A stretch of DNA of 61,120 nucleotides, the filler included, from Hausera hauseri (Eukaryota), in assembly GCA_046269625.1 (NCBI GenBank). It is 11 parts of 11 records of this genome, joined end to end, with 100 filler letters (N's around TTAATTAATTAA, not from the genome) between each part and the next. Parts side by side here need not be neighbours in the genome. Positions count along the whole stretch, not along the records: positions 9,923 to 16,063 come from JBJURY010134317.1; positions 16,164 to 21,193 come from JBJURY010355932.1; positions 21,294 to 26,205 come from JBJURY010393257.1; positions 26,306 to 34,860 come from JBJURY010602110.1; positions 34,961 to 40,793 come from JBJURY010181750.1; positions 40,894 to 47,127 come from JBJURY010121872.1; positions 47,228 to 51,746 come from JBJURY010544119.1; positions 51,847 to 56,510 come from JBJURY010418033.1; 3 more parts are not named here. One strand, 5' to 3'. Below are positions 9,923 through 61,120 of this stretch, piece by piece. The notes under the pieces were generated by a model that did not search any database, was not told the DNA's origin, and saw only the letters and a program-made list of their open reading frames with translations. The translations under genes and the position numbers were made by a program. The first letter of the stretch is position 1. Each line of letters opens with the position of its first letter.

Positions 9923-10340
9923 ACTTCAACATTGTTTATAGATGTAGATGCCACAGGTAGGTACATTGGATTATCGAGCTTGACAGTGACATTGTCGCCA
10001 GCAGTATACTTGCTGCTTTCTGGATAAATTGCGCGGAGTAGCGGTACACGTACTCCACCGACCAAAATCGGTTCGATGACGTTCACGTAAATGTACATTT
10101 GACTTATACCAGTTTTCAGTTTAGGTTTTAGTGTTGCAACATGTGCCGTCTTCGTATTTGATGCCTGAAACTGATGTTTTTCAAAACCCAATACCATGGC
10201 CAAAGCTTTGTCCAATGAAATGTTGACAATATCTTTAGTCAGTTCAAATTTAATGTACCCATTTGCATCTGACTTGAAGACTTTAAATATCTTCTTGTAC
10301 TTTTGATCTGAAGAAGTGTTGACAGAGATGTGCTACAGAT
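9923..10340 (-). CDS. Polinton/adintovirus minor capsid protein (penton-like), partial
   Basis: LAMVLGF...GISQMYIYVNVIEPILVGGVRVPLLRAI...VKLDNPMYLPVASTSINNVE fits the Polinton minor capsid pattern (lYvYxdivEpqlVGdxxvPLLRxv...fdnPxYvPv...IEI). The 3' end is cut by a linker and the 5' limit is approximate. Confidence 0.75.
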
Positions 10341-10467
10341 TCGCAATTGACATTGTCTCCAATCGATATGTATGACGTTGACACCCTTTCTGTTTTATAG
10401 GTTAATTTCACCGTTGTCTGGTAATATACGGACTTAATTTTGGGCCAACTACATATTCATTTTTAAT

Positions 10468-10822
10468 ATGTTTACTTTTGTACTCTGTATTTTGAATGCA
10501 AATTTGTGCGCCATCTCAGAAGACTCAAAGGTAACAGTAAATTCAAAACCCTAACCGCTTGCATACATATTCGATCCACTGTTATGTGGAATCAGTTAGC
10601 ATTGAATATACAATACTTCACATTAAAGATCAAATTGACGGACAAAAGTTTACACAACTCCGTTCACACTTTCTGGAGCTGCGAATGACGACGTATTCAA
10701 CATCGAACAGCTCGCTGGCTGTGGTACCTGACAATATTAGATGTCCGTATCATGATCATGGATCGCATTGTGCTTACAAAAAATGTCTACGGATTTGTAT
10801 TGACTATATTTCATGCAAATAA
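10468..10822 (+). pseudogene. Small orphan ORF with hydrophobic N-terminus and Cys-rich C-terminus (one frameshift assumed)
   Basis: MFTFVLCILNANLCAISEDS... from ATG 10468 joins, with a +1 shift, ORF 10559-10822 ending RCPYHDHGSHCAYKKCLRICIDYISCK. It lies between the penton and RING genes. Confidence 0.3.
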
Positions 10823-10934
10823 ATAATTGTATTTCGCTGTTTCTTTTTTTTCTTTACCTAAATAAGGTCCGTCGTATTGGTCAGTTGAATAATTCAAAAA
10901 CTATAAATACGAGTAGGAAATAATATTAATCATC

Positions 10935-11408
10935 ATGGAAATAGTTAATCATTTGAAGCAATTACAAAATTTTGATGGATTATCAATTTCAGACATGGTA
11001 CGATGATGTCAAGTACTTGATAGTGATCTGGTTGCGAGCGCAGCAGGTGATTTTGGATTTAAAGATTTAGCGTCAATAGCATTGGTGACAGCAACAACAA
11101 CAGATTGCAGCTCTATAGAAGCTCTAATTATTGTGTTAAATCAAATGTACATTTACCAATTTTATGATACAAATTACTTTAATACTGTTGAAAATGTAAG
11201 AGGTGAATTAACGAACTTGAAAGAGAAAATAATACACAAGGTACGAAACTGTCAGTTGATGTGTGTACTAGTAAACAAAGAAAAGTAGATACGGTATTCT
11301 TAATGTGCGGCCATCTTGTTGTTTGAAATGTGTTTCACCAAAGTAACAACCCACCGATGTTCAGAATGTAAATGTATTATAATTGGAATTGTACACATTT
11401 ATTACTAA
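10935..11408 (+). pseudogene. C-terminal RING-finger (C3HC4, IAP/MDM2-like) protein, decayed
   Basis: TATAAATA at 10902 and ATG at 10935, in frame with ORF 11082-11288 across one TGA. Repairing two small deletions gives CVL[C]KQRKVDTVFLMCGHLVV[C]EMCFTKVTTHRCSECKCIIIGIVHIYY*. Confidence 0.7.
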
Positions 11409-11415
11409 TGAACAG

Positions 11416-11722: not shown

Positions 11723-12173
11723 ATGTCTTTGGAAAACAATTCAGCAGGTCACAGTCTCTCAAAAAAGCCACGGTACAGCGAATATTCGCTCAAATTCCCG
11801 ATTGTAAAATGGATACAACTTACATTATCTGCGCAACGCTATTCAATTGCCATTGATGCAAACGGTCAAAATCAAAACGGTGAAATATGGTCCATTGGTG
11901 AAAAAGATCAGCGACGATGATTTGGATACAATGGAAGACACAATTTGAAAAGTTGACAGTGGTTTGGCGTTGAGTAACGATATCGGAGATACATCGTCGA
12001 TTCTTCTCAAAGGAAATATGGCGAAAATTGTCAGTTCACATAGCGGCGAAGCAGCAGAAGTTTTGTCACCGGAAGGAGCTAAAGGCTACTTGACACTGAA
12101 GCTCAAAGGATACAAGGAAAGGAGCGGCGTCAAATCTCCATTATGGAAAATGGGGACGTTTACTATGATTTAA
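11723..12173 (+). pseudogene. Family-A element conserved ~150-aa ORF ('MSLENN', putative OB-fold/SSB), copy 1, frameshifted
   Basis: ORFs 11723-11920 and 11964-12173 together match ORF 40278-40736 and 51853-52191. Convergent with the pPolB 3' end. Confidence 0.75.
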
Positions 12174-12449: not shown

Positions 12450-15259
12450 TTATTTCAGTTGCCAATGTTCATACGCCCAACTCTTATTTCGCCCCACCCA
12501 CTTTAGCTTATCATCGTTACATGACAAAGCGACTTTCGCACTAGTTATTGTGTACAGCTGGCGCTCAATTGATCGGATGATAGTTTCAGACACAACAACC
12601 ACTGATTGTTCTCCTTCTGCTGCTGCTGCTGCTTCATATATACGGTGATAATCACCATGGCCGATTTCCGTCTGCTTCAGCTGGACTCCTTTTGCTCGCA
12701 TTTTGCTATCCACAGTCCGTCAGAAGACTGTAGCACTGGGCGTAGGAATATCCATTCCCGATACTGAACCCGACCTTCACTTTTATCCTTGAAGCAGCCG
12801 ATTTTGTTGGATATCGCGCTGCTGTACAACGGATAGTGGGTAGTTGGACGTGTCCAATAATCCATCTAACTGCATTTGCTGCAGTAGCTGTTCGCGATTG
12901 ACCTTTTTTCAGCCACAGGAAAAAACTGTGTCACCGGCAATTATACTAATGTTATGGCCGTCAAACATTTGCCGGTAACGTGCTAAGTCGCGATACTGTA
13001 GCTCATTTATCCGCATCTTGCTCAGGTCCAATACCACTTGTCCGATGTAACTTGTTCGGCCCAGAACGACTTCTTTCCGGTTTAACAACACCGTAACCAA
13101 TCCATCGGCAATGTGCATTGACCGCCGAAACTGTGCCTTGCTGGTATACGTAACCAGCCGCTTTTCGCTGTTGCATAGGCGTACGTTGAACCGCTTTTTC
13201 AGGTCCTCCACTGTTTTTCCGTACAGTGAATTGTTTTTGAGCTTGTGATAGTCCTTTTCGAACTTTGTACAAGCTGCGGCTCCTTTATCCGAATTTCCAT
13301 CTATGTACACCTTGAATATGAGAGCCTGAGCAAATCGGATTTTGCGATGTAGCCGTTTGACTCGTACACCCAACTGTATGTAAAATTGCAACACACGTTA
13401 ATGAACTATGCAATTTTGCTTGGGTTCATGCGTATTGAGAAGTTTCTTCACTTTTGAGCCTGGTGGACATTGATTAAATGGTGCGACGTCATGCAGCTCA
13501 TCTGGTATCTCGAGATCGACCTCCATCAGGTATCCGACTGAGCCTGCCATGTCTGCTCGTGGTAGGTTGACCATTATGTCGTCCAGATCTTGTCTGTCGA
13601 CTACTCATTCGAATGAACCATACGGCTAGGGTTGCGAAAGCGCCCAGTCGTACAGGTTATTAATATCAATATATAGCAGTGATGTGGTATCTGTAGCACT
13701 GATCTGATGTTTGTTGACAAATGTCATGCCACCTCGAATACCAACATCAAACAGACGGTATATTTCCGGGTCTTTCAGCAGCTTAATGTCTAGATCCAGT
13801 GACATTAGAGCTGACGCCTAACTCACTCCCGATATGGAATAAAAATTGAGTGGCTCCAGCCTATCTTCAGCCAACGCTTTCGACCGAAACGCCTGGAACA
13901 CATCGGCCAATAAGTACACATCCAGTTTCAGATACTGAAGCATGTGCTTCATCATGTTTCTGCAATCGAGTTCTGTCCAACACCTCTGTGCTTTTCGGTA
14001 TTCATGTTCTGCGATACCTGTCCATCGCCGCGGTAATTCCTCTGCTGTGCGGAGTCGCTCATATGATGTTGCAAAGTCATACGGGAATATGCCTTTGCTA
14101 CGCGCAGTGTGGGAAATTGCGTCAATGTTATCGGCACATTCGGCAAGGCATTTACGAGCTTTACTAGAGACTCATTAAGAAATTGCAATGATTCGAGGAA
14201 GCGTACCTGGAACCGGTTTATGCTTGCTGACAGGGACAGGTAGTTCTTCATTGTTGTTGGGATTACTGTCAGTTTTCAGTGGGGAAATCCATTAATGGCC
14301 CATTTTTGTATATTGTGACAATCATAACCTCGAAAATTATGAAAGACCACCGGTAAGAATGGCTGCACACGCCTTGCCAAATTGCATGAATTACATGCTG
14401 CTCCCAGATGCCGACCAGTAAAATGATCGTAATCCGGTACGAGCTGTTCCAGTGCGTCAAACGGTAATATTTTATGGCACAGTTAACATTCATCTGTGAC
14501 TGCAAACGTCAGGCGTTCATCTTCATCTGTTTACATCAAGAGTTTATTGCTATTTCTACTGTACCATGGTGCGATTTCAGTTTCCGCTATGGTTTGCAAC
14601 TGCTGCAGAAAATCATGTACGCAATTCCAGCCGTGAAAGGCGTAATACTGCGGCTGACCGACCGCTTTTATCGGGCCAACTAACATACTAACGGCGATTG
14701 GAACGTGTTTTTATCATACACGTTGTGCAGTGTAGAATTCCCTCAATATCGGCATATACCACATATGCCGGACTGTCCGTTTTCGACCAGTCACTAAATC
14801 GGAACTCCTTTTTGAGTAGCATGACGTACATGGTTGTTCCCGTTGAATTCTGATCGTACAGCGTCACATCTTTCTCCCATATTGTTTTGGACCTGAATCA
14901 ATGCAGACATACAGGACACCATTTGCATCGTATTCGCTTTTTGATGAACTGGTCATGTTCCATGTTCAACAGTCTATTCAGATTTATCATTGCCACGTAA
15001 TGAAAATTTTCTGCCTGCTCCAACAGCAACAAATTTACCGACTGCGATAAATTTTGTCCACATTGGGGTTCTTATAAATTTCTTCGTCTTCCGGTATTTC
15101 AATTATTGTCTTGTACCCGAAAACGTTGATTGACAGCGTCGGATTACGACGTTCAAAAGCCGGAATGGTTTTCAGTTTCATCGGCATCCAGCATTCATCA
15201 AATTGCAATTCAGAAAAATACTGCCGATACTGATTTGGACGATTTGCATGATATCTGTT
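12450..15259 (-). pseudogene. Polinton-type protein-primed DNA polymerase B, family A copy 1 (5'-truncated, decayed)
   Basis: RFQVRFLESLQFLNESL, GIRGGMTF, LLYIDINNLY (motif A), KLKNNSLYGKTVE (motif B), IIAGDT (motif C), IGCFKD and ALSCNDDK. Many frameshifts. Confidence 0.9.
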
Positions 15260-16870: not shown

Positions 16871-16874
16871 GCAT

Positions 16875-26379: not shown

Positions 26380-27033
26380 TCATATCGATTTCCGAATTTG
26401 TTTATAGACATACACAGCTTTCGGATTGAAAATGTCTGTTCGTACGCGCATGTCATTTGGACACTATTGTGTAAAGTCAATGAACAGATATCCGTGCGGC
26501 TTGCACGTAGCTTCATGGTATGCGTCTATCAAGTAGGTCCGGTTGCGAGGAAATGCTTGTCTAGCACTATAATCTATGATAGTCTGTTCAATGGGATTTT
26601 TGAACAACACCACATAATGTACGTTTAGATTTCTCTGATGGAACACCCTGATGGAACATGTTTTGCGTAATGAAAGTCACAGTCACACCACAGTGTGGTG
26701 AAATCTTCGCAAATAGATTGTTGAAGTCGGTTTGTTTCGCGGCTTCCTGGAATAAATCATCACTGACAATAACGTCACTGCTGCGTAATAATCTGGACCA
26801 GTTGTCATTAAACCCATCAATTACCGTTATAGATTTTAATTTACAAAATCCCTGTTGTGTAAGACCGGATTCTCCATCATCATCACCATCGATACCCTGA
26901 TGCCAGTAAATGTGATTGAACCGCGGCGATTGCAATATGTCACTGTAGTTTCGCAATAGTTTACACACAAATGTGTTTTATCACTTCCACTGGGGCCTAC
27001 AATTTGAAAAATCGCCTTATTCTGCATATTCAT
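26380..27033 (-). pseudogene. Polinton packaging ATPase (A32/FtsK-HerA-like), decayed
   Basis: Walker A IVGPSGS[D]KT, Walker B DVIVSDDL, LFAKISPHCGVTVTFITQNMF, LNVHYVVLFKNP, ARQAFP, AYHEATCKPHGYLFIDF and RVRTDIF. Frameshifts and a stop are present. Confidence 0.9.
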
Positions 27034-27129: not shown

Positions 27130-27590
27130 ATGTTAGCCAATATCAACTATCGCGGATATGTTACATATTGAATTGACGCATTACCATTTAATCAATTGAA
27201 ACCGAGGCAGTATGTACACACATGTCCACCAGATTTTACGTGCATCATATTTCAGTCGGACAAGTGTCATATTGTGGGTTGTCGCAAACCAGCCAAAGCT
27301 AAAAACAGTAAACAACAACTACCATTCAAAATTGTCATTGCTCGAATTCAGTAAATAATGGTAACGACTCAGTTAGATTTCTTGTCAATCAACCTGTACA
27401 AATTGGCAATGGTTACCAAGTGCATTTATGAGCCCGAACTGTTTCCCGCAATGAAATTAACAGTCTCGTCCACTTTGTGTCAATGCGATTAGCAGTGTAT
27501 AAATTGTCATACTCGGTATTCCGACAATGGACTATGAAACGACAGTTAATAAAAATAAAAATCATGTAAATGCTTTAGTGAATCAAAATA
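27130..27590 (+). pseudogene. TATA-binding-protein-like (two TBP repeats), element-encoded, decayed
   Basis: One frame from ATG 27130 reads MLANINYRG...KPRQYVHTCPPDFTCIIFQSDKCHIVGCRKP...RIQ*IMVTTQLDFLSINLYKLA...IYEPELFPAMKL. After a frameshift it reads RPLCVNAISSV*IVILGI. These match TBP repeat 1 (TALIFxSGKxVxTG) and repeat 2 (YEPELFPGL...IFxSGKVVLTG). Not in the ORF track. Confidence 0.75.
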
Positions 27591-27604
27591 ATGTACTCTA
27601 CACA

Positions 27605-27843
27605 ATGAGTTATAAATACCACTCTCACGTTCGTTCGAACATTTCTATGGAAAATGGCGATAAAACGATATTACTTAATGGTGGCAGTGAACAAGATCAG
27701 AGTTCATATTGGTCATGGTTGTCTGGTGACAAGAAGGACAATATGGAAGTTCTGGAACCGAAAACAGAACTTGTCCAGCAATCAGTAACAGAATCGTTGA
27801 TAAAACAGCACGTGGGAATGATTGGTAGTGGAGTAATACGTAA
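27605..27843 (+). pseudogene. Truncated orphan ORF with LNGG and MIGSG motifs
   Basis: MSYKYHSHVRSN...ILLNGGSEQ...VGMIGSGVI, then fused directly to the cut 3' end of pPolB copy A2. Confidence 0.35.
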
Positions 27844-30800
27844 ACCCACTTACGCTTATCATCATTGCATGATAAAGCGACTTTTGTATTGGTCACCGTA
27901 TGCACCTGGTGCTCAGTTGATCTGATGATCGTTTCAAACACAACAGCCTTTGATTGTCCTTTTCCGTCTTCTACTTCATAGACACGGCAATGATCACCGT
28001 GGTTTATTTCCGCATGAGTCAACTAAACTTCTTTTTCGCGAATTTTCGGTCCACAGTCAGTTAAAAGGTTATAAAATTTTGGCCGCAGAAATATGCATTC
28101 CCAATACTGAACCCGACTTTCGCTTTCATCCTTGAAACAGCCGATTTTGTTTGTAATGGCATTGCTGTACGATGAATGATTCTGCAGGTAGTTTGACGTG
28201 TCCATTAAACCGTCTGCAATCATTTTTCGTAGCAGTTCTTCGCGATTGACATTTTCCAGTTCCAAGAAACACCTATCTGTGTTACCGGCAATTATATTGA
28301 TCCTGTACCCTCCAAACATTTTCCGGTAACGTGCCAAATCGCGATACTGCAACTCATACATATAACTTGGCCGGTACAGTACGACTTCTTCCTAGTGTAA
28401 AAGCACGGCAACTAATCCATCTGCAATGTGCATTGATCTCCTGAACTGCGCCTTGCTCATGTACGCGACCAACTGCTTTTCGTTATTGCATAAGAGTACA
28501 TAGAGCCGCTTTTTCAAATTCTCTACTCTTTTTCCGTACTGAGAATTGTTTTTCAGTTTGTAAGAGTCCTTTGCAAACTTTGTATAAGCTGCAGCTCGTT
28601 TTCCGAATACCCTCTGATGCACACCTTGAATATCGGAGCATGTGCGAATCGGAATGCGCGATGTACTTGTGCGGAACGTACACCCAACTGCATGTAAAAT
28701 TGCAACAAACGACAATGAAGTATGTAATTCTGCTTAAGTTTATGCGTCATAAGCATCTTCGTCACCTTCGACCCCGGCGGACATGGGCTAATTGATGCTA
28801 CTGGTAATTCGTCTAGAAAGTCATTCAGCTCATCTGGTGCCACGAGATCGACTTCCATCAGGTATCCGACTGAGCTGTTTTCTGTTGTGTCTGCTCTTGA
28901 AAAATTTTCCAGTATTGTGTCCTGGTCCTGTTTGTCGACTATCCATTCGAATGAATCGTACGACAAGGGTTGCGAAAGCGCCAAGCCGTATAGGTTATTA
29001 ATGTTGATATACAACAGTGATGTGGTATCATCAATGGTAGCAGCAACAGCATTAGCATGGCGCTTGTTGACAAATGACATGCCGCCACGAATACCAACAT
29101 CAAACATTCGTACATTTCCGGGTTTTGCAATAACTCGATATCCCGATCCAGTGGCACCAGAGCTGATGCCAAACTCATTCCAGCTATTGAGTAAACGTTT
29201 AGTGACTGCAGCCTATCTTCTGCAAACGCTTTAGCTCGAAATGTCTAAAACAGATCGGCTAATAAGTATACGTCCAGTTTCAGATACTGAAGCATGTAGT
29301 CCAAAAGGTTTCTGCAGCCGATTTCTGTCCAAAACGACCGTGCTTTGTAATATTTTTTTCTATTATACCGATCCATTTCGGTGGTAATTAGTCTGTCGTC
29401 TGCAGCCGCTAGTACGATATCGCAAAGTCATATGGGAATATGCCTTTTTCTACTTTCAATATGTGTAGAGAACTGCGGCAATGTTAGCGCACATGTAGTA
29501 AGGCTTTGCCATAGATTCATTGAGAAATTGCAATGAATCAAAAAAGCGTACCTGGAACCGGTTTATATGAGCAGACAAGGACAGATAGTTCTCCATCGTA
29601 GTCGGAACGACAGACAGTTCCCAATGAGGAAATCCGTTAATGGCCCATTTTAAAATATGGTGACAATCATAGCGACAGAAGTTACGAAAGATAAACGGTA
29701 GGAATAGCCTCACACGCCTTATCAAATTGCATGAATTGCATGGTGCTCGCAAGTATCAACCGGTAAGGTGATGATGATCCGGTACGAGCCACTCCTTTGT
29801 ATCAAACGGTAATATTTTGTGACACAGGTAATACTTCCGTTTCTACTATTTTTTCCAACTGCTACAGGAAATCGTGCATGCAGGTTCAACCGTGAAAAAT
29901 GTAGTACTGCGGTTGGTGAGTTGCTTTTATTGGGACCACAACATATCGACAGTGATTGGAACGTGTTTTTGATCGAATACATTGTGCCGTGGTAGAACGG
30001 CTTTGATACCTGGATATACCACGTATGCCGGACTGTCAAGCTTTGACCAGTCACTGAATCTCAGCTCCTTTTGACTGGCATGACGTACATTATTTTTTCC
30101 GATGAATTTTTTCTGCATAGTGTCGCATGTTTCGTCCATATTGTTTCGACCAGAATCCATGCAGATATATAGGTCACCATTTATACCATATTTGTTTTTT
30201 GATGAACTGGTCATGGTCCATATTAAATAGTCTGTCCAAATTTGTCACGGCCATATAATGGAATTTTTCCTCCTACCTTTGCTCTAACATCAACAAATTT
30301 ACCGGGCGTCCATTTGAGTTCCAACATCTACAGATTATGCCCACGTGAGTGTTCTTGTAAATCTCTTCGTCTGCCGGTATTTCTACAATTATATTGCACC
30401 GGAACACGTTGATTGACAGTGTTGAATTACGCCGTTCAAACGTCGGGATGGTTTTTAGTTTCATCGGCATCCACTATTCATCAAAGTCCAATTTGGAAAA
30501 GTACTGCCAATATTGATTTGGATGATTTGCATGATCTGTGTCTACTTGGTCATATTTTAATACGGCCAAAATAGTGTAAAGAAAACGGTATTCATCATTA
30601 TTATTTTTTACATTCACTACCGCACCAAACTGCTTTAAAGCGTCAGGTGTTGGTATAAATGATCGTCCAGATAAGTAAATTATATCACTCGGCTTTGTAA
30701 TGATAAAGGCGAGAGTGACAAGTTTTACAATTCGCCAATCACTACCCTTTTCGGTATAGTTGGCGATTTTTTCATGCAGCTTTTCTCCTACATCGGCAAG

Positions 30801-31652
30801 AAAATCGTCGGAATACGGTTCGGCTCGATGTGACAAGTACCATTGTTTTCTATCACCTTCAAAATTTTCAAATTCTGCCAGTGCATAATACTGCACTTTG
30901 CAGTGATGGTAGTGGTGGTTGTAGTGAAATTTCTTCATTTCTGATCGAACCGGTTGTGTACACTCTACGGCACATTCTTTAATTGCATTGTTGCTTTCGA
31001 CAACATGTCCACTTTAATGTCCACATATGGTCTGTTTAGATCGTACTTGACAGTTATGGGAAGGACAGGTTTATGCTGCTGCTGTTGCTCCTGTTGCTGA
31101 TACCGTTGTTGTGTTTGCTGTTGTTTTGTATGTTTTCGTCAAGCCTTGTAGATGCTTGACGTTTTCTTTTTGTTGATGGAATGTTACTTGTTGAGGGATG
31201 CTTTTTTCGGCTGCGACCATCATTATTTGCTTTTTGGACCACTGAAATTTGTTCAAGTGGTCCTCGTGCTGTTTATAAAATTGTTCATAGTTGATATGCG
31301 CTTTAACTGTAGAACATCCGGGAGAAACTTAGGCCCGTTTACCGTGTACCGTTGTGGTGCTAGAGTACTGCTCCAATAAACTATGGCATCCTTCAACGTC
31401 ATGTATTCTACTATTACAGTAGCGTGGATACGTGAGGCAGTGCACAATCATCATCTACTTAGACAGCGTTAACGGACCAAGATGATCCTTGTGCATTTCA
31501 TAAAAGTCGGGGTATAAACAGAGGGTTGGAATATTACATGTCGGACACAATTATGTGTCCCTGCCCGCTGCGTATTATTTCACCATCTGTTTATGGCACT
31601 GATCTGCCTCATGTCTGGGCAAAACGCAATACATTGGATATTCATTGCATTT
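27844..31652 (-). pseudogene. Polinton-type pPolB, family A copy 2, with N-terminal Cys/His modules
   Basis: KVQYYALAEFEN..KQWYLSHRA, EKGSDWRI, GRSFIPTP..VVNVKN..Y(C)FLYTIL, APCNSCNL, GIRGGMSF, LLYININNLYG, YKLKNNSQYGK, IIAGNTD and IGCFKDE. Ends at DDKRKWV. Confidence 0.9.
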
Positions 31653-31832
31653 CTAAATGAAATAAATTAACACTTGTTAAATTTAATTTAAAAATAAAAT
31701 AAATTCAGGTAAATACAGAAAAATAAATAAAAGTGTAACTTGTTTCCTTCATTAATAGACTACAACATATTTAATTTATGCATCTATAAACATCGCAGCA
31801 GTACTACTGCTAATATTAAAGCTACGGATCAA

Positions 31833-32109
31833 ATGGAACAGTACATTAAAAGTGAGATTGAGAAATTGACCGATGACATAATCACTGGACACGTATTTCA
31901 TGTTGAATTTTTATTTGAACTTGCAGAAAGGAGAATAATAAACAGGTAAGAATATATTTAATTAAGTCAGATCTCTCTTCCTAAAACGTATCAAAAATGA
32001 ATTGAAACGAAAACGGCAACAACGACAGTGGATTAATTTCCTCCTCATTGAACTTGTATTTTCTGCTTCGCTTTGTGTTATAATGAAAAAGTTGATTGAC
32101 CGTATTTAA
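31833..32109 (+). pseudogene. Family-A ~92-aa ORF with C-terminal transmembrane helix, decayed copy
   Basis: MEQYIKSEIEKLTDDIITGHVFHVEFL...INR*... then LVFSASLCVIMKKLIDRI*. Homologous to 35747-36022 and 56990-57271. Confidence 0.7.
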
Positions 32110-32251: not shown

Positions 32252-32671
32252 ATGTCTCATTTATCGAAACTCCTTCGTTTATACTACTCCTTCGATGGTC
32301 TCCGGAGTCACCTTTAAAATCTCGATTGACCTTTACATGATGCACGATGCTTTTCTCCCGAAGAGATACTCCTGCATGCTGAGGAGAATCGGAGGGTACG
32401 AGAATATCATCTACGACATACGAAGCAGCATTTTGGTGACATGGATATGATATTCGGCCACATGTTTCGCATTTGGTAGAAATTGGCGGATTATTATGCG
32501 TTGGATGACAATCCACATCAAATACGTTTTGTGGAGGATTTTGTTAAAGGCGATCAGATTGGTGATTACATTCCAACGTGGCAGTCAGCGGATCGGATTT
32601 GTTTCAAGCAACATTGCAATGTAACTAATTCCGATTGACTCGTTCATTCTCCTACGGAATTGGTTAACTAA
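32252..32671 (+). pseudogene. Family-A orphan ORF ('MSHL', ~125-139 aa), with stops
   Basis: TATAAA at 32213, then MSHLSKLLRLYYSFDGLRSHL*NLD*PLHDARCFSPEEILLHAEENRRVREYHLRHTKQHFGDMDMIFG... It aligns codon-for-codon with 56882-56611 (minus). Confidence 0.65.
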
Positions 32672-33208
32672 TGTGGTTTGTGTGCTCCTAACATTTATTA
32701 AAAACGATTTAATTTTTGGTATTGTTGTTGTTGTTGCTGTACAAAACAAAGGGAACTAAATGTTCGATTCAGATTGGACTTGTCGATATACCTGATTGTT
32801 ATAGCCAGCCAGACAGGTATGGTCCGACTATGAGTCATTAATAAAAATTAATAATAAAAAGAAAAATTATTAAAATATTAAAATTAATAATAAAATAGTA
32901 TAAAAAATTGTTAAGACAAAAAAAACTAACATTCACTGGGTGATCCATCTTCGGTTGTCGCAAATTTTCGAAATGACGATAAACTAAGTGACATGGAATT
33001 TTATGTATGTGTGTGTGTAGTGGTCACATTTTATTGACAAACATTGTTGATTTTGAAAACACTGCTTCCAAAAAACAACAGTCTCGACTTCAAATCCAAT
33101 ATTTCAGGATTGAACTTTAGAGTAAATAGCGAACAAATCATGAGAAATAATATATTTTCATTAATATGAGCTTCACAATATCTCTGTTACACATTTGGTG
33201 GTGGTAAG

Positions 33209-33314
33209 ATTTTTCCCAACTCAACTCGTTGCGGTGAGTCCGAATATGCAGGTGTCCGGAACTGGATCAGTCCAAAATTTTTCCGACTCAACTCGTTGCG
33301 GTGAGTCTGAATAT
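33209..33314 (+). repeat. Two ~38-bp direct repeats, each with an internal ACTCA...TGAGT inverted pair
   Basis: ATTTTTCC(C)(A/G)ACTCAACTCGTTGCGGTGAGTC(C/T)GAATAT at 33209-33247 and 33277-33314. Confidence 0.8.
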
Positions 33315-39100: not shown

Positions 39101-39995
39101 CAATCCGATTTGCTCAGGCTCCCATATTCAAGGCGATAATAGATGAAAATTCGGAGAAACGAGCCGCAGCTTGTACAAAGTTCGAAAAGGACTACTATAA
39201 GCTGAGAAACAATTCCTTGTACGGAAGAACAGTGGAGAATCTGAAAATGCGGTTCAATGGACGCTTATGCAGCAGCGAAAAGCGGTTGGTCAGGAACACG
39301 TGTAAGGCACAGTTTCGGCAGTCAGTAAACATTACCGATGGATTGGTTGCGGTGCTATTAAAAACAGAGAAGTTGTTCTGGACTGGCCAAGTTACATCGG
39401 ACAAGTGGTATTGGATCTGAGCAAGTTGCGGATGTATGAGCTACAGTATCGCGATTTGGCAGGTTACCGGCAAATGTTTGACGGCTGTGACAATAGTATA
39501 ATTTCCGGTGACACAGACAGATTTTTCCTGAGGCTGAAAAAAGTCAATTGTGAACAGCTACTGCAGCAAATGCAGTCAAATGGATTACTGGATACGTCCA
39601 ACTATCTACCGGATCATCCTTTGTACAGCAGCGTGAATACCAACAAAATCGGCTGCTTCAAGGATGAAGGTTAAGGCCGTGTCCGGTATCGGGAATGGAT
39701 ATTCTTACGCCCAAAGTGCTACAGTCTTCTGACGGACTGTGGACCGAAAATGCAGGCGAAAGTAGTCCAACTGAGACAGATGGAAATCGACCACAGTGAT
39801 TATCGCCGTATATATGAAGAAGCAGCAGAAGGAGGACAATCAGTGGCTGTTGTGTCTCAAACGATCATCCGATCAATTGAACACCAGCTGTACACAATAA
39901 CTAGTGAGAAAGTCTCTTTTTCATGTTACGATGATAAGCGAAAGTGGGTGGGACGAAATAAGAGTTGGGCGTATAAACATTTGAGGTTAAAATAA
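36188..39995 (+). pseudogene. Polinton-type pPolB, family A copy 3 (full span, decayed)
   Basis: In order: Cys/His modules, polyQ linker, TP-like region, vOTU-like VVNVQNTDNEYCFQYSIL...FHYVAV, CxxC finger, exonuclease VVYANIEAIL, HNH/EndoVII-like CYLCHK..PDHNHFTGRYLGAACNSCNL, LLYIDINNLY, YKLRNNSLYGRT, ISGDTD and DDKRKW. Confidence 0.92.
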
Positions 39996-40277: not shown

Positions 40278-40736
40278 TCATAGTAAACTTCCCATTTTCC
40301 ATATTGTGGATTTGACGCCGCTGCTTTTCTTCAATCCTTTGAGCTTCAGTGCCAGGTAGCCTTTAGCTCCTTCCGGTTGCAAAACAGTTTCTGCTGTTTC
40401 TCCGCCATGTGATCTGACAATTTTTGCCATATTTTCTTTGAAAAAAATAGACGATGTATCTCGGATATCGTTACTCAACACCAAATCACTGTCAACTTTT
40501 CTAATCGTATCTTCCATTGTATCCAGATCATCATCGCTGATCTTTTTCAACAATAGACCATATTTTACCGGTTTGATTCTGACCGTTTGCGTAAATGGCG
40601 ATTGAATAGCGTTGCCCAGATAATGTAAGTTGTATCCATTATACAACCGGGAATTTCTGAGCGAATATTCTATGTACCGTGGCTTTTTTGACAAACTCGC
40701 GGAACTGTCACATGCTGAATTGTTTTCCAAAGACAT
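40278..40736 (-). CDS. Family-A conserved 152-aa ORF ('MSLENN', putative OB-fold/SSB), copy 2
   Basis: Essentially intact ORF convergent with pPolB. TATAAATA lies ~40 nt upstream (minus strand ~40775-40782). NLS-like SKKPR near the N-terminus. Confidence 0.8.
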   Translation of the reverse strand: MSLENNSACDSSASLSKKPRYIEYSLRNSRLYNGYNLHYLGNAIQSPFTQTVRIKPVKYGLLLKKISDDDLDTMEDTIRKVDSDLVLSNDIRDTSSIFFKENMAKIVRSHGGETAETVLQPEGAKGYLALKLKGLKKSSGVKSTIWKMGSLL

Positions 40737-51846: not shown

Positions 51847-52191
51847 TTACCTGTGAACCCCCATTCTAGTGCAATTATCAACACCGATCAAATGAAACAG
51901 ATAAAATATGGCCTGTTGGCAAAGAAAGTAGGTGACAGTGACTGGGATGCATTGGAGGAAACAATGAAAAAAGTGGACAATGATTCGATGTTGTCTAATG
52001 ATATTTTGGACACATCCTCGCTTTTCCATAAAGGCAACATGGCGAAAATTGTGAGTGTAAGTGGACAGACAGCAGTTTTGCCAACGGAAGGGGTAAAAGG
52101 ATACCTGACAATGAATCCAAAAGGATATAAGGAACTGCGTGGTATTAAATCGCCAATGTGGAAGTTTGGGATGTTTACCCTAATGAATTGA
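51847..52191 (+). CDS. Family-A conserved ORF ('MSLENN' family), copy 3, 5' end cut by linker
   Basis: QIKYGLLAKKVGDSDWDALEETMKKVD..LSNDILDTSSLFHKGNMAKIV..EGVKGYLTM..GYKE..GIKSPMWK. Convergent with pPolB copy 4. Confidence 0.8.
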   Translation, partial: LPVNPHSSAIINTDQMKQIKYGLLAKKVGDSDWDALEETMKKVDNDSMLSNDILDTSSLFHKGNMAKIVSVSGQTAVLPTEGVKGYLTMNPKGYKELRGIKSPMWKFGMFTLMN

Positions 52192-52501: not shown

Positions 52502-55500
52502 TTATCTCAAACGCCAATGTTCTTACGCCCAACTCTTCCTTCGTCCCACCCACTTTCGCTTGTCATCGTTGTATGGCAAAGCAAGATTTTTATTTGTGAT
52601 GGTATACAGCTGGCGCTGAATTGATCGTATGGTTGTTTGACACACAACAAACTTTTCTTCTTCGTCTTCACCGTCTTATTGTCCATCATAAATACGGCGA
52701 TAATCATCGTAATTTATTTCCGTATGTTTCAGCTGGAACCCTTTTGCCCTCATTTTCGGCCCACAATCCGTCAGAAGACCGTAACACTGGGCGAAAAAAT
52801 ATCCATTCCCTGTATTGAATCCGGCCCTCACTTTCCTTCTTGAAGCAGTCGATTTTGTTTGTTATCGCGCTGCTGTACAGTGGATGGTTCTATGGGTAGT
52901 TGGATATGTCCAGTAGTCCATCTGCCATCATTTGTCGGAGCAGCTGGTCTCGATTCATGTTTTTCAGCTCCAGGAAAAAGCTGTCTGTATCACCAGCAAC
53001 CATGCTGATCTCACAGCCGCCGCCACCGCCGCCGCTTCCGAACATTTGCTGGTAACGTACCATGTCGCGATACTGGAGCTTGTACATTCGCAACTTGCGG
53101 AGGTCCAATACCACTTGTCCAATGTAGAATGGTCGGTGAAGTACGACTTCTTTCTTTAGAAGCATGGCGACCAATCCATCGGCAGTGTGCATTGACCGCC
53201 TGAACTGAGCCTTGCTGGTTTACATAACCAGTCGTTTTTCGTTGTTGCACAGGCGCACATTGAGCCGCTTTTTCAGATTCTATACTGGTTTTCCATACAG
53301 TAAATTGTTTTTTCAGATTGTAATAGTCATTTTCAAAATTTGTACAAGCTGCGGCTTGTTTCTCTGAATTTCCATTAATGTACGCCTTGAATATCAGCGC
53401 CTGATTGAAGCGAATTGCACGATGTAGCTGTGTGACGCATACACCGAGCTACATGTAAAACTGCAGTAGACGCCAATGAACCACGTAATTCGATTTGAGT
53501 TCATGCGTCATAAGCAGTTTCTTTAGTTTTGAGCCACGTGGTGGACATTGGCTGATTAATGCCACGGGTAATACGTCCAGAGCGTCATATAGCTCATCCG
53601 GTACCACAAAATCAACTTCCATTAGGTAGCCGACTGAGCTGCTTTCTGTCGTGTTTGCTGCTGCTACTGCTGCTGGCAGACTGTCCAGCAATGTATCCAG
53701 TTCTTGTTTGTCCATTATCCATTCAAATGTACTGTACGGTAAGGGTTGCAGAAGTGCCCAGCCGTACAGGTTATTAATATCGATGTACAACATTGACGTT
53801 GTATCATCGTTATCACAGGTTACTTGATGCTTATAGACAAATGTCATGCCACCGCGAATACCAACATCAAACAGCCGGTACATTTCCGGGTCTTGCAGTA
53901 GCTTAATATCCCGATCCAGTGACATCAGAGCTGACGCCCAACTCATTCGTGGTATTGAGTAAAAGTTTAGTGGCTCCAGCCTATCTTGTGCCAACGCTTT
54001 AGCTCGAAATGTCTGAAACACATCTGCTAACAGGTACACGTCCGATTTCAGATACTGAAGCATGTAGTCCAACAGGTTTCTGCAGCCGATCTCTGCCAAA
54101 AATGATTGTGATTTGTGATATTCTTCTTTTTCTTCTGTGATACCGGGCCATTGCGGTGGTAATTCGTCTGTCGTCTGGAGCCGCTCGTACGATATCGCAG
54201 AGTCATACGGGAATATGCCTTTGCTGCGTGCAATATGCATGGAAAACTGTGACAGTGTTAGCGGCACATCCGGCAAGGCATTTACTAGCTTTGCTAGATA
54301 CTCACTGAGAAATTGTAATAAGTCAAGGAATCGCACCTGGAACTGGTTTATGCGTGCCGACAGAGACAGGTATTTCTCCATTGTTGTTGGAATTATGTGC
54401 AGTTCCCAGTGTGGAAATCCATTAATGGCCCATTTCAGAATATGGTGACAGTCATAACCAATGAAGTCATGAAATATCACAGGCAGGAATGGCCTCACCT
54501 GTCTTGCCAAATTGCATCAATTGCAATCTGCTCCCAAGTATCGACCAGTGAAATGATTGTGATTCTTTAAAAGCCGTTCCTATGTATCGAACGGCAATAT
54601 TTTGTGCCACAGGTAACATTCGTCAGTGGCAGCGAAAAGCAGAGGTTCATATGTGTCTGCCCAGACCAAGGGTTTAGTGCGATTATTCCGATACCACGGC
54701 GCGATTTCCGTTTCCACTATAGTCTCTAACAATTCCATCCGTGGAAAAAGTAGTATTGCGGTTGTCCGTCTTCTTTAATGGGCACAACAAGCATGCCGAC
54801 GGCGATTGGAACATGCTTCTGGTCACACACGCTGTGCTATGGTAGAAGTGCTTTGATATAGGCATACGACGTATGACGGACTGTCCGTTTCTGACCAGTC
54901 ACTGAATCTTAGAGCTTTTTTGACGGGCATGACGTATATTGTTGTTCCTAAGCAATGTTGTCTACACATCGTCACATGCTTTTCCAATGTAGTTTCTGAT
55001 CTGAATTCATGTAAACATACAAGACACCATTTACATTGTATTCGTTTTTTGATGAACTGGTCATGTGCCATGTTCACTAGTCTGTCTAGATTTGTCACTG
55101 CAGCGTAATGGAACTTTTCTTTCTGCTCCAACAACAAAAAATATATTGGCTGTCCATTCAGGTTTCGATAGCGGTAGATTATATCCACATGTGGATTTTT
55201 GTATATCTCTTCATCTGCCGGTATTTTTATTATTGTGTTGTACAGGAACATGTTGATTACCAATGTCGGATTACGCCGTTCAAATGTTGCAATTGTTTTT
55301 AGTTTCATCGGCATCCAGCTTTTATCAAAATCCAGTTCCGAAAAATACTGCAGACACTGACTTGGACAATTTGCATGTTACCTGGACACTTCGTTATATC
55401 TTAATACCGCTAGAATACTGTATAGAAAACAGTATTCATCATCAATATTTTTCATATTCACTATCTCATGTGAGTGTTTCAGAGCCTCATGTGTCGGTAA

Positions 55501-56485
55501 GAATGAACGTCCGGACAGGTAAATTGTCACTCAACTTTGTTATAATAAAGCCGAGGGTGACAATTTTGATTATTCGCCATCCACTGCCTTTTTCCGCATA
55601 GTTAACGATTTTTTCTTCTAGCTTTTCGCCTACGTCGCCAATAAAATTATCTGAATAGTGCACAGCTCGATGTGACAGGTACCATTGTTTCCTATCACCT
55701 TGCACGTTCTCAAATTCTGCAAGTGCATAATACTGCACTCTGCAGTGTTTGAATTTCCCCACTTCAGCTTCCAGTCGGTTTCGCACACTGGACGGGACAT
55801 GACTCAATTGCGTTTTTGTGTTCGCGGACATGTCCACCTTCATGTCCACGTACGATTTGTTTAGATCGTACTTGACAATAATGTGTGGTTCCTCCTTTTC
55901 CTCCTGATGTTCCTGATGTTGCTACTGCTGCTTACTGATGCTGCTTTGCGCGTGGATGCTTGACGTTTCCTTCTTGTTGTTGTTGTTGTTGTTGTTGCTG
56001 CTGAGAGGATGTTGTTGTCATTGTTGTTGCTTTTTTGCGTACATGAGTTTCTGTTTTTTCGATCGCTTAAACTGGTTCAAGTGGTCCTTGTGCTAATTAT
56101 AGAATTGTTCATAGTTGATTTGATCATCATAAACTATAAAACAATCGGGACATACACAGGTCCGTTTACCGCACAGCGTTGTGGTTGTGCCATGGTATTG
56201 CTCCATTGCAGTATGGCAAACAGCAACATTATGCACTCTACTAGTACAGTAACGTGGGTATGTGGGGCAATGCGCAAGCATCATCTTCTTAAACCGCGTA
56301 AACGGCCCGAGATGATGCGTGTGCATCTCACAAAAGTTGGGGTACGGACACTGCGTTGAAGTATCGCACGTGGGACATAGATATGTGCCCGTCTCAATAA
56401 TGTAATACTTCGTCATCTGTTGATGGCACTGTTCCTGATCTACGTGAATGCGAGATACTCAATATACGGGATAATGTTTGCATTT
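52502..56485 (-). pseudogene. Polinton-type pPolB, family A copy 4 (full span, decayed)
   Basis: A 353-aa ORF piece has PVIFHDFIGYDCHHIL, KGIFPYD, YLKSDVYLLADVFQTFR, GIRGG and LYIDINNLYGWAL. Also MVAGDTDSFF, the N-terminal Cys/His modules and the TP/vOTU-like region. Confidence 0.92.
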
Positions 56486-56610: not shown

Positions 56611-56882
56611 ATTTGACAAGGATTGCTATCTAACGCATAGTAGTCCGTCAATTTCTGATAGGTGCAAAGCAAAGGACCGAATATTATATCCATGTCACCA
56701 ACAACCTGCTTCATATGTCGTAGATAGGGTTCGCGTACCCTCCAATTCTCCTCAGCACGCCGGAGTATCTCTTCGGAATAACTGTATCATGCATCATGCA
56801 AAAGTCGATCAAGATTGTAAAGGTAACTCCGAAGACCGTCGAACGAGTGATATAAACGAATGAGTTCTGTTAAATGGGACAT
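56611..56882 (-). pseudogene. Family-A orphan ORF ('MSHL'), copy 2, cut by linker
   Basis: TATAAATA upstream, then MSHLTELIRLYHSFDGLRSYLYNLDRLLHDA*YSYSEEILRRAEENWRVREPYLRHMKQVVGDMDIIFG..KLTDYYALDSNP. Confidence 0.65.
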
Positions 56883-56989
56883 GTTATAATGTAATACCTT
56901 AAAGAAGCGCAAGTATTTATACTGAAANNNNNNNNNNAAATTATATTGATTCACGAAAACAAAAATAGCAAAATAATACATATTTGTGA

Positions 56990-57271
56990 TTAAATACGGT
57001 CATTCAACCTTTTTATTACAATACAGAGCGAAACAGTAAATACAAGTCCAATGAGGAAATTAATCCGTTGTCGTTGTCGTTGTTGTCGTTTTCGTCTTAT
57101 TTCATCCTCGATACGTTTTACAAAGAGCGATTTGAATATCAAATAAATATACTCTCGCTTACTCATTATTCTCGTTTCTGTATTCTCACATAAAAACTGT
57201 ACATCAAACACATCTCCGGTCAAAATGTCATCGGTCAATCTCTGAATTTCACTTTTAATATACTCTACCAT
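56990..57271 (-). CDS. Family-A 93-aa tail-anchored-type membrane protein (intact)
   Basis: MVEYIKSEIQRLTDDILTGDVFDVQFLCE...RRKRQQRQRQRINFLIGLVFTVSLCIVIKRLNDRI. Confidence 0.75.
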   Translation of the reverse strand: MVEYIKSEIQRLTDDILTGDVFDVQFLCENTETRIMSKREYIYLIFKSLFVKRIEDEIRRKRQQRQRQRINFLIGLVFTVSLCIVIKRLNDRI

Positions 57272-57331
57272 TTGATTCAGAGTAGTGGTAGTAGTAGTAA
57301 TGTTGATGCACGTTTATAGCCAAATTAGGCA

Positions 57332-60300
57332 ATGCCTGAGACTACAGTAAGGGGAATAATTTAGGGTGTATTGTACCTAAATTTATTTAGTTATAATTAA
57401 TACATTTTTATTTGTGTTTACTTTAATTTGTTTATCACTCAGAAATGTTCACAATATCAAATGTATTGCGTCTCCCGCATACATAAGGGCGGACAATGCC
57501 ACAAATAAACGGCCAAGTATTATTCAGTGGCCAAGGACACGTACCCGTGTCCCGTCTGTTTTATTCAAAACACATGCCTTTACGCCGACTTTTCATCTCG
57601 GTCCGTTCAAGCGGTCCAAGAAGATGATGATTGTGCACTGCCCCACATATACGCAATATTGTAGTAGTAATAGAGTGCATGACGTTGCTGGTTTCCATAG
57701 TGCAGTGGAGCAGTATTATGGCGCCACAAAGGTGCATGGTAAACGGGCCTACGTTTGCCCCGGTTGTTCTATAGTTGAGACGCAAGTCAACTATGAACAA
57801 TCCTACAACAATCACAAGGACCACTTGAACCAGTTTTAGAGGTCCAAAGGAAATATTAATGGATGCAGCAAGAAGCAGCAAGAAACGCCAAGCATCAACA
57901 AGCCTTGACGTATATTTTCAAATCAACAGAAGTCAAAAACAGCAGCAGCAGCAGGAACGTGAACCGCCCATTACTGTCAAGTACGACATGAACAAATCAT
58001 ACGTGGACATGAAGGTGGACATGTCGGCGAAAACAGCAACACAATTGAAGGATGTACCTGCTAATGTGCGTAACCATTTGGAATCAGAGGTGGCCAAATT
58101 CCAACAAAACCACTGCAAAGTGCAATATTATGCACTTGCAGAATTTGAAAATCTGCAGGGTGACAGGAAACAATGGTACCTGTAACATTGAGCCGTACCA
58201 TACTCTGAGGATTTTATTGCCGATGTAGGCGAAAGCTTGGCATAAAAATTGCCAACTACACCGAAAAGGGTAGTGGTTGGCGAATTGTAAGGATTGTCAC
58301 TCTCGGATTTATTCTGATCAATACGAGTGACACGATTTACCTGTTTGGGCATTCATTCATACCGACACCTACATCCTTGAAGCAGTCTCTGGAGGTAGTG
58401 AATGCACAAAATACTATCGACGAATACTGCTTTATTTACAGAATTCTGGCCATATTGAAATATGATCAAGTGTCCAGATATCATACAAATTGTCCAAAGC
58501 AGTACAGTAAATATTTCTCAGAATTGTACTACGAGTGTTTGATACCGATGAAACTCAAAACCATTCCGGATTTTGAACGGCATAATCCGACACTGGCAAT
58601 CAACGTGTTCCGGTACAACACAATCGTAGAAATACCAGCAGAAGAGATACAAAAACCTACACTTGGATATAATTTATCGCAGTCGGAACCCGAATGGACG
58701 CTCGGTAAATTTGTTGCTGTTGAAGCAAGCAGATAAATTTCACTACGTGGCAGTAACCAATTTGGGCAGACTGCTGAACATGGATCACCATCGATTCATC
58801 AAAAAGCGTATAAATTGTAAATGGTGCCCTACATGTCTGCATGGTTTCAGGTCAAAAACGACATGGGAAAAACATGTGGCGCTGTGCAGACAAAATCCAT
58901 CGGGGACAACAATGTACGTCATGCCAGTCAGAAAGGAGCTGAGATTCAGTGATATGTTGAAAACAGACAGTCCGGCATGTGTGGTATATGCCGATATCGA
59001 GGCAATCCTACTGCGGCACAACGTATACGACCAAAAGCACATTCCATTCGCCGTCGGTATGTTGGTTGTTCCAATAAAAGCCGCCGGACAACTGCAATAT
59101 TACGTTTTTCATGGCTGGAACTGTATACGCAACAGTTGGAAACGATAGTGAAAACGGAAATCGCACCGTGGTACAGTAACAATAGCACTAAGTCCTTGAT
59201 ATGGACTGCTGCTTTTCGTTGCCACCGATGAATGTTACCTCTGCCACAAAATATTGCCTTTTGATGCAAACGAACGCCTCTTACCGGACCACGATCATTT
59301 CACCGGTCGATACCTGGGAGCAGCATGCAACGCATGAAATTTAACAAGGCGTGCGCGGCCATTCCTCCAGGTGACCTTTTATAATTTCCAAGGTTATGAT
59401 TGTCACCATGTACTGAAATGAACCATCAACGGATTTCCGCACTGGGAATTATCCATTATCCAAACAATAATGGAGAAGTACCCGTCCCTGTCAGCACGCA
59501 TAAAGCGGTTTCAGGTACGCTTCCTTGATTCATTGCAATTTCTCAATGAATCATTGGCGAAGCTGGTAAATGCCTTGCCGGATATGCCGATAACCCCAAC
59601 GCAGTTCCCCACGCATTACACGCAGCAAAGGCATATTTTCATATGACTGCAACATCATGAGCGACTCCAGACAGCAGAGGAATTACCGCCGCGACGGACA
59701 GGCATCACAGAAGATGAATATCGGAGAGCACAAGAATCTTGGACAGAACTAGGCTGTAGAAACATGTTGGATTACATGCTCCAATCAACTTTTATTCAAT
59801 ACCCGGAATGAGTTGGGCATCAGCTCTGATGTCACTGGATCGGGATATCGAGCTATTGCAAGACCCGGAAATGTACCAAATGTTTGATGTTGGTATTCGT
59901 GGCTGCATGACATTTGTAAACAGGCACCACGTAACCAGTGATGATACCACATCACCGTTATATATCGACATTAATAACCTGTACGGCTGGGCATTTTTAC
60001 AACCCTTGCCGTTGGTTCATCCGAATAGGTAGTCGACAAACAGGACCTGGACACAATACTGAAAAATGTGTCGAGAGCAGACACGTGGTACCAGACTCGT
60101 GGTACCAGATGAGCTGCATGACTTTTCGGATGAACTGCCGATCGCACTAATTAACCAATGTCCGCCGGGCTCGAAGGTGAAGAAGTTACTTCTGACGCAT
60201 GAACCAAAGCAAAATGACATAGTTCATTGGAGTCTGTTGCAATTTTACATGTAGTTGGGTGTACATGTCACACGGCTACATCGAGAAATCCGATTTTTTC

Positions 60301-61120
60301 AGGATCCAATATTCAAGGCGTACATAGAAGGAAATTAGGAGGAACGAGCCGCAGATTGTACAATGTTCGAAAAGGACTACTACACGCTGAAAAAAAATTC
60401 CCTGTACGGAGATACAGTGGAGAATCTGAAAAGGCGGCTCCATGTACTCCTATGCAATAGCAAAAAGTGGTTGATCACGTACATTAGTAAAGGGCAGTTT
60501 CGGCGGTCAATGCACATTGCAGATGGATTTGTTTCCATGCTTTTAAACAGAAAAGAAGTCGTTCTGGACCGGCCAAGTTACATCGGATAAGTGGTATTGG
60601 ACCTGAACAAGTTGCGGATGTATAAGCTGCAGTATCGCGATTTGGCACGTTGCCGGAAAATGTTGGGCGGCGGACGCAGGATCAATATAATTGCCGGTGA
60701 CACAGATAGTTTTTTCTTGGAACTTGAATACGTCAATCACGAACAACTACTGCAGCAAATGATAGCAAACGGATTACTGGACACGTCCAATTACTCACAG
60801 AATCACCGTTGTACAGCAGCGCCATCACAAACAAAATCGGCTGCTTCAGGGATGAAAGTGAAGATCTGATTTAGTATCGGGAATGGGTATTTCTACGTCC
60901 AAAATGTTATAGCCTTTTAACTGACTGTGGACCGAAAATGTGCGCCAAAGGAGTTTAGTTGGCTCAGACGGAAATAAATCGCGGTGATTGTCGCCGTGTC
61001 TATGAAGAAGGAGGATAATCAAAGATTGTTGTGTCTCAAACGATCACCCAATCTATTGAGCACCAGCTGTATACGATGATCAATACAAAAGTCGCTTTAT
61101 CATGCAATGATGATAAGTGT
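57332..61120 (+). pseudogene. Polinton-type pPolB, family A copy 5 (putative leader exon 57332-57346, intron 57347-57442), runs off window
   Basis: Same domain order as copies 2-4: VVYADIEAIL, LYIDINNLYGWA, YTLKKNSLYGDT and IIAGDTDSFF. Internal deletion near 59783. Confidence 0.92.

Follow-up and report, generated by a model that had tools for sequence, protein, structure and literature searches.

A decayed Polinton family in Hausera hauseri belongs to a clade with a short TBP-like gene and a candidate matching promoter box

Adintoviruses are defined by a PolB polymerase, an adenain protease, an rve integrase and an FtsK ATPase (Starrett et al. 2021, PMC8502044), and N-terminal TP-vOTU domains of the polymerase pPolB serve as a criterion for Polintons and adintoviruses (PMC11161782). 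Here we describe a Polinton family, family A, in a window of 61,120 nt that consists of 11 contigs of Hausera hauseri with spacers of the form N44-TTAATTAATTAA-N44 between them. Like the Polintons/Mavericks and the Alpha adintoviruses (PMC8502044), family A has a pfam03175-type pPolB and an FtsK/A32 ATPase, and its relatives also have the rve integrase, adenain protease and PLA2 of adintoviruses. In these relatives a penton-like gene stands one gene before a capsid-like gene of ~410 aa, a layout as in PMC4028283. Compared with adintoviruses, the clade adds a conserved gene of ~150 aa that resembles TATA-binding protein (TBP), a predicted single-stranded DNA-binding protein (SSB) of the gp2.5 type and a candidate promoter box specific for gene classes. 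The window copies are, by sequence comparison, a decayed, adintovirus-like Polinton family within a widespread TBP-bearing clade. In the intact relatives the shortened TBP would bind the box [CT]ATAAAC and thereby, at a late stage of infection, switch on the genes for packaging and capsid, a proposal that we hold with slightly better than even confidence.

A literature search, with subscription journals largely outside its coverage, turned up no account of a TBP family in Polintons and a box to match it. The parts consulted of PMC8502044 and of its bioRxiv version have 'TBP' only as a label, in legends to figures on MELD viruses of the non-animal section and without analysis, and the cited part of bioRxiv 2026.10.13.758929 mentions neither TBP nor TATA; Jeong et al. 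(bioRxiv 2023.08.22.554363) was a further print comparison. A virus-encoded TBP fold, as here, is known from beta- and gammaherpesviruses, whose TBP mimics include ORF24 of KSHV (Kaposi's sarcoma-associated herpesvirus) and UL87 of human cytomegalovirus (HCMV) and act on TATT late promoters (PMC12529657). These mimics keep the Phe residues, and a polar DNA face selects the variant TATA box on late genes (PMC12529657, PMC8360532). KSHV ORF24 is a large, multidomain member of a six-member viral complex, with a model that is incompatible with TFIIB (PMC12529657). In contrast, the Polinton TBP is a stand-alone protein of ~150 aa that can be aligned to cellular TBP and has the EPE stirrup conserved, with no evident partner complex. 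Its likeness to the herpesvirus vTBP/vPIC is one of analogy only. Giant viruses and mirusviruses also have TBP-like factors, as cases of viral TBP capture for their own promoters. These, however, are large viruses that mostly have their own RNA polymerase, whereas the element described here is an integrating one of 15-20 kb in which no RNA polymerase was seen.

The sequence-only reading of the window had assigned five contigs to one pPolB family, and this was borne out. Pieces of pPolB were present on all five (9923-16063, 26306-34860, 34961-40793, 51847-56510 and 56611-61120), the contigs shared 70-79% DNA identity over 1.3-3.9 kb, and all pieces matched P0003, an intact ENA protein of 1,235 aa with DNA_pol_B_2 and endonuclease VII domains, at 71-74% identity. 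With Pfam DNA_pol_B_2 (cut-off 25.8 bits), a window piece scored 57.4 bits and P0003 98.2 bits. In a quick tree of 54 rows with SH-aLRT support, the window fragment and P0003 were sisters (100) within a clade of 15 rows (96), to which the polymerases of the metagenome contigs L025 and L036 also belonged. This clade stood apart from the named coral adintovirus polymerases, to which it was 31-35% identical.

The ATPase/TBP block had been attached to family A through a single rearranged junction, at 27843/27844. This junction is real in the window, where it interrupts an unassigned open reading frame (ORF) and the 3' end of pPolB, which stops at residue 1221 of the 1,235 of P0003. A JGI scan with the TBP alignment gave 171 confirmed stretches, and the best 80 of these were kept as the basis of all locus counts. 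The 80 loci contained ATPase (27), a conserved ORF described below (26), the MSLENN gene (20), integrase (16), PLA2 (16), a penton-like gene (13), a capsid-like gene (11), the TM ORF (10), protease (8) and pPolB (8), and a Polinton core gene was present in 13 of the 15 TBP loci of at least 5 kb and in 26 of the 36 of at least 3 kb. On each of the intact contigs L025 and L036, TBP, ATPase, rve integrase, penton-like gene, capsid-like gene and pPolB occurred together. Pfam rve was above its cut-off in both, and L048 passed Peptidase_C5; no protease was called in L025 or L036. We consider it improbable that contig 26306-34860 is chimeric, with a TBP/ATPase block that came from a different Polinton strain or from a misjoin and a family A that is without TBP. 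The join is found in one copy only, and in run X1, which may itself be the source of the assembly, it was not independently bridged: the one identical contig reached 29 nt past it, below the bridge threshold of 31. In addition, the pPolB that seems to go with the TBP cluster P0001 is just 51% identical to P0003, which implies that modules do move. Set against this, the window ATPase, penton-like, SSB-like, TM, TBP and pPolB genes found their best matches in the same group of loci, and P0283, a member of the nearest TBP cluster, and the nearest pPolB, P0003, were both on 10,114-nt ENA contigs, presumably the same contig; P0281 and P0008 were likewise both on 10,226-nt ENA contigs. The linkage in L025 and L036, the tree and the shared best-match loci together upheld the assignment of the block to this pPolB clade.

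The window TBP-like gene passed Pfam TBP (30.2 bits, cut-off 22.9) and was 62-68% identical to the intact protein P0001; two intact relatives were at 63-66% identity, and P0001 was 87% identical to P0002. At E<=1e-10 the TBP profile retrieved 142 clusters (50% identity) among 1.84 billion representatives, some of them cellular-type TBPs and the top ones a distinct family of ~150 aa. The model of P0001 (pLDDT 95.6) matched TBP structures with a Foldseek E of 2e-8 and a TM score of 0.6-0.7, and all 44 matches at E<=0.001, among the matches listed, were TBPs. The viral protein has the fold, three of the four intercalating Phe residues and a nearly whole second repeat in common with cellular TBP (PF00352). 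It differs in a shortened first repeat, without both helices and without a recognisable first Phe, so that two complete repeats with four Phe are not present, and in polar residues at positions of the DNA face. Judged from the model, it is a derived TBP and not an orthologue of the host TBP. The lost helices have a role in binding host regulators in cellular TBP. Among 79 distinct TBPs from the loci, F40 was kept in 76, F101 and F117 in 77 each, E97 in 76 and E99 in 77, while polar residues, at positions where cellular TBP has aliphatic ones, were found as R105 in 65, C113 in 57 (S in 16), N115 in 77, R46 in 75 and S72 in 72. R105, C113 and N115 align to yeast I194, V203 and L205, and overall the viral TBP has polar residues at the equivalents of I194, V203, L205, V122 and N159. 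Changes at I194, V203 and L205 give the altered specificity of TBPm3, and the two halves of TBP divide the box between them, the C-proximal one reading its 5' half and the N-proximal one its 3' half (PMC1636458).

Promoter boxes were counted between -25 and -60 nt before each gene in TBP-bearing loci after duplicates had been removed. In an unbiased 7-mer count, CATAAAC, TATAAAC and ATAAACA ranked first or close to it in all three groups set by rank and layout, and the box was enriched 6- to 12-fold in each of the three layout groups. It was found before the ATPase in 19 of 26 cases, the core gene in 12/16, the capsid-like gene in 6/10, the penton-like gene in 8/16, PLA2 in 10/13 and the conserved ORF in 16/26, with a background of 174 in 9,626 intervals (1.8%). 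Before TBP it occurred in 0/71, before SSB in 2/19 and before pPolB in 0/3. The TBP gene had TATAWAW upstream in 27 of 71 cases compared to a background of 4.6%, and the TBP-like gene in the window had it 35-37 nt upstream. The controls were 13 distant, TBP-less, polinton-like IMG/VR loci from a pPolB scan, in which the box preceded 1/137 ORFs and 0/12 ATPases, and six further loci (0/83 ORFs), two of them with the ATPase-core-integrase order but partial. Other IMG/VR scans found one distant locus with the TBP alignment and three distant ones with the ATPase, and none with P0001 or the capsid-like gene; a GTDB scan gave 3 partial loci. In the window, the exact box was present 47-49 nt before the TM ORF in all three copies, as the longest stretch without a change in a spacer of which 30% of the columns were invariant, and 39 nt before the MSHL ORF in one copy. 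Exact boxes also lay inside the 3' ends of the window ATPase (26400-26406) and penton-like genes, where they could serve the next gene.

Several observations weigh against a dedicated TBP-box pair. The box was missing before the protease (0/6) and rare before the GSG core gene (1/6) and the integrase (3/15), and the TM ORF, with a box in 3/3 window copies, had none in nine relatives. Over the whole window the box was at chance (28 vs 26), and upstream of the window ATPase there were only matches with one mismatch. The controls were distant (~25-40% identity) or partial contigs, with no TBP-less animal adintovirus among them. The loci are related, with many from few assemblies, and the counts are not independent; the alignment at V203 is ambiguous by one residue. 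Furthermore, TATAAAC is near the canonical TATA box, and the host TBP may read it. A less likely reading is that host TBP/TFIID reads the box. The viral TBP would then act as a decoy or an inhibitor, by titrating TFIIB or by blocking the TATA boxes of the host, or else as a nonspecific booster. The single base that separates the box from TATAAAA would fit this, as would the late-type genes without a box and the loss of both first-repeat helices, which could cripple the assembly of a normal complex. It accounts less well for the near invariance of the polar DNA-face replacements in the 79 proteins and for a box that is absent before TBP itself and nearly absent from TBP-less controls.

The MSLENN gene is predicted, from the model of a relative, to encode an OB-fold ssDNA-binding protein of the T7 gp2.5 type; the fold was tested on the L025 relative, to which the window copies were aligned. 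Relatives have ~115 aa, and the L025 model (pLDDT 92) had Enc34 SSB, DUF2815 and T7 gp2.5 as its top three matches (Z 8.0-8.4; root-mean-square deviation 2.6-2.9 A over 101-105 residues), ahead of the next unrelated structure at 5.5; CP312R of African swine fever virus reached Z 6.7. Alike as these proteins are in the OB-fold, the L025 protein differs from gp2.5-type SSBs in its ~115 aa, ~10% identity and the lack of an acidic tail. The nearest viral matches of the model in BFVD were giant-virus proteins. Together with a more distant TBP relative in the 45-kb viral contig L094, these matches could point to an element that depends on a helper virus, with a TBP that, like the TBP-like factors of giant viruses, serves the helper or a cytoplasmic transcription machinery and a box that mimics the helper's late promoter. 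Virophages do share promoter motifs with their helpers. We give this explanation little weight, as a helper would bring its own factors, the relatives resemble nuclear, integrase-bearing animal adintoviruses (PLA2, adenain, rve), and a box at about -35 from the ATG fits a TATA box for RNA polymerase II (Pol II).

If the shortened TBP does read the box, transcription would start with the TBP, SSB and pPolB genes, by host TBP and Pol II at ordinary TATA boxes, and pPolB and the gp2.5-type SSB would replicate the linear DNA through protein priming. With its TFIIB-side EPE stirrup kept, the viral TBP would then mark the box and recruit host TFIIB and Pol II to the virion genes, and without the first-repeat helices it would escape some host regulators. 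The integrase would have inserted many strains into the germ line, followed by decay and internal deletions. The wider claim, that small integrating animal DNA viruses of a widespread clade independently evolved a one-gene early-to-late switch like that of herpesviruses, in which an altered-specificity TBP of 150 aa redirects host Pol II to late promoters with [CT]ATAAAC, seems to us evenly balanced. If true, one gene and its matching box would be a simple and directly testable answer to how Polintons time their expression; the pair would speak for a genuine viral programme in Polintons and provide a natural case of re-specified TBP-DNA recognition, and the TBP with its promoter a natural orthogonal pair. 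The window copies themselves are dead relics. They put the clade, apparently in high abundance, into what is probably an animal germ line, and they show the box conserved between diverged strains.

Independent decay of diverged copies, as the sequence-only reading had it, was confirmed: each pPolB copy had 8-11 in-frame stops, and only 4 of 44 stop positions were common to more than one copy. Divergence between copies was 17-24% at the first codon position, 13-17% at the second and 26-37% at the third. The excess at third positions suggests that the copies derived from active strains that had already diverged, and the high divergence at second positions is probably due to later neutral decay. 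As an observation on pPolB itself, a duplicated Cys/His motif (CPxC...H) opens the clade's polymerase before the usual domains, in P0003, P0008 and the window at 56281-56458.

The printed gene order of the earlier reading, with penton, small ORF, RING, MSLENN, pPolB, TM ORF and MSHL in succession, is not supported as the native one, as both odd adjacencies look like internal deletions. The first lies at ~10,575, where the penton-like gene and the conserved ORF, both cut at the 5' end, stand back to back (10570-10600), and the second is the 27843/27844 junction. In the parent layout, pPolB would share its strand with the ATPase and virion genes, and the opposite strand would hold TBP, the conserved ORF, RING and SSB; two internal deletions in this single layout would account for both junctions. 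The head-to-head arrangement of ATPase and TBP recurs in L038 and L044. A model with an inversion at the penton/ORF junction ranked lower, since the orientation of the ATPase would need an extra event. In run X1, no pile of loose ends near 10,575 was seen among the 6 inspected of 659, which hints weakly at a common junction. The 'GG/GSG ORF' of the earlier reading does exist from 27647, but its supposed first part is the C-terminus of TBP (P0001 residues 98-160 at 27434-27616). The ORF from 27647 had no homolog among the related loci and did not match the profile of the canonical QYGSG core gene.

The coordinates of all features are given in the table.

Table. Positions of family A genes, exact candidate promoter boxes and the candidate right arm along the window
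Feature	Position	Strand	Remarks
Penton-like (minor capsid) gene, 3' part	9925..10568	-	broken; cut by contig end, without ~100 first codons
Conserved Polinton gene, 3' half ('small ORF' of the earlier reading)	10583..10822	+	
RING-finger gene	10935..11405	+	broken over two frames
MSLENN gene, SSB-like	11723..12173	+	broken; profile E 1e-11
pPolB copy 1	12453..15256	-	broken; P0003 residues 292-1235
Packaging ATPase (A32/FtsK-like)	26380..27033	-	broken over three frames
Short TBP-like gene	27130..27616	+	stops and frameshift; head to head with ATPase
Unassigned ORF ('GG/GSG ORF' of the earlier reading)	27647..27843	+	cut at deletion junction
pPolB copy 2	27844..31652	-	broken; last ~14 codons gone at junction
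Exact TATAAAC box	31785..31791	+	48 nt before TM ORF
TM ORF (small, hydrophobic C-terminus)	31833..32109	+	broken
MSHL ORF	32252-32638	+	broken; exact box 32213-32219 upstream
Candidate non-coding right arm	32640..33957	.	candidate end 33957
TM ORF copy	35747..36022	-	exact box 36065-36071
pPolB copy 3	36295..39995	+	broken; endonuclease VII insert (Endonuclease_7 31.3 bits, cut-off 23.6)
MSLENN/SSB-like copy	40278..40736	-	open frame; E 9e-10
MSLENN/SSB-like copy	51847..52191	+	truncated by contig start
pPolB copy 4	52505..56458	-	broken; longest open piece of all, 355 aa
MSHL copy	start 56882, in 56611..57318	-	cut
TM ORF copy	56990-57271	-	exact box 57312-57318
pPolB copy 5	57419..61120	+	broken; truncated by window end

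Among the virion and packaging genes, the window ATPase matched the profile of its relatives, which pass Pfam Pox_A32, with E values of 1e-33 and 8e-30 and was 52-62% identical to the nearest ones. The penton-like gene matched a profile of 17 ORFs from relatives (E 1e-34, positions 197-319; 30-42% identity) and is homologous to the gene that stands one before the capsid-like gene there. We take the name penton from position and size in the relatives, and the single jelly-roll fold is putative. As had been reported, no major capsid, integrase or protease of family A was found in the window with profiles from relatives, and the only integrase match of the profile search was a gypsy element at 42901-43347. 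The capsid-like gene of the relatives, of 403-427 aa, was in the expected place; neither it nor the penton-like gene had a match in PDB, Pfam or PHROGs, and a motif search for the two in one supplement of Starrett et al. found nothing. An Rfam search gave no match. L036 contains two penton-like genes in tandem.

The accessory genes that had been proposed for this lineage were supported for transcription (TBP), for replication (SSB) and, weakly, for ubiquitin (RING). Their description as unusual has to be qualified, as they recur across a widespread Polinton group, the one of the 142 TBP-profile clusters. The 'small ORF' is not a gene of its own but part (~93-158) of a conserved Polinton gene whose profile has 159 positions (E 1e-11). 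In Atlas, this gene family scored 0.95-0.96 with unnamed clusters and 0.85 with Maelstrom; a Maelstrom/DEDD-like identity, below 0.9, is a lead only. The RING assignment, and with it a ubiquitin-type gene in family A, is weakly suggested by Pfam zf-C3HC4_3 on one piece (E 0.038, under the cut-off) and by a tblastn match (E 0.009) to the RING of L051, which passes Pfam. The TM ORF copies matched a profile of 10 relatives with E values of 2e-4 (31833..32109), 8e-12 and 4e-12 (the other two), and MSHL had 6 candidate matches, none significant, and no homolog among the related loci. Cargo in relatives included an E2 ubiquitin-conjugating enzyme, an ORF that we take to be phosphatase-like, an LRR protein and KilA-N (L036:225-719, L019:4008-4316, L043:1265-1804, L085:1-843).

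In run X1, summed contig depth ranged over 477-94,348 in the part of contig 26306-34860 that belongs to the element and over 447-246,243 in 9923-12600, while contigs identical to the copy on 26306-34860 had a depth of only 4.7-8.6. Summed depth is no copy number, but it suggests that family A is present in very many copies. At the right arm, depth dropped from 26,507 in bin 33742-34027 to 663 in bin 34028-34313, which contain or adjoin the candidate element end. The arm includes a highly abundant tandem repeat of ~57-68 nt (33206-33314), with a summed depth of >3 million, far higher than for any other stretch measured. None of the 5 long loci examined for ends was a complete element. Over the penton/conserved ORF/RING stretch (9923-11362), summed depth was 28k-246k, ~10x that of most of the adjoining SSB stretch, which may reflect an amplified deletion derivative. 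At 34961-35600, other sequence, with a frame that is presumably gag-like, replaces the MSHL gene just before its start and is probably a retroelement insertion.

Other contigs of the window encode the second-largest subunit of an RNA polymerase, part of Cse1, a fatty acyl reductase and a kinase, and also carry retroelements. The best solved relative of the kinase is MAP4K3, which suggests that the host is probably an animal. The RNA polymerase subunit is an intronless open frame of 824 codons (5570-9588), ~700 nt after the Cse1 fragment. A second, unrelated pPolB family, ~30% identical to family A, lies at 21294-26205; it is present twice in inverted orientation (21310-22397 vs 24613-23522, 80% identity) and groups loosely with coral adintovirus polymerases. 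Contig 16164-21193 is CpG-depleted (ratio 0.37-0.45 vs ~1.0 elsewhere) and contains part of a Pao peptidase as well as an open frame of 391 aa, without a Pfam match, that we take to resemble a retroviral envelope; the contig may come from a second, vertebrate-like genome. Finally, at 1536-2551 inverted repeats of 200 nt (96%) and 60 nt (100%) are nested, with a 16-nt tandem unit, next to gypsy-like pieces.

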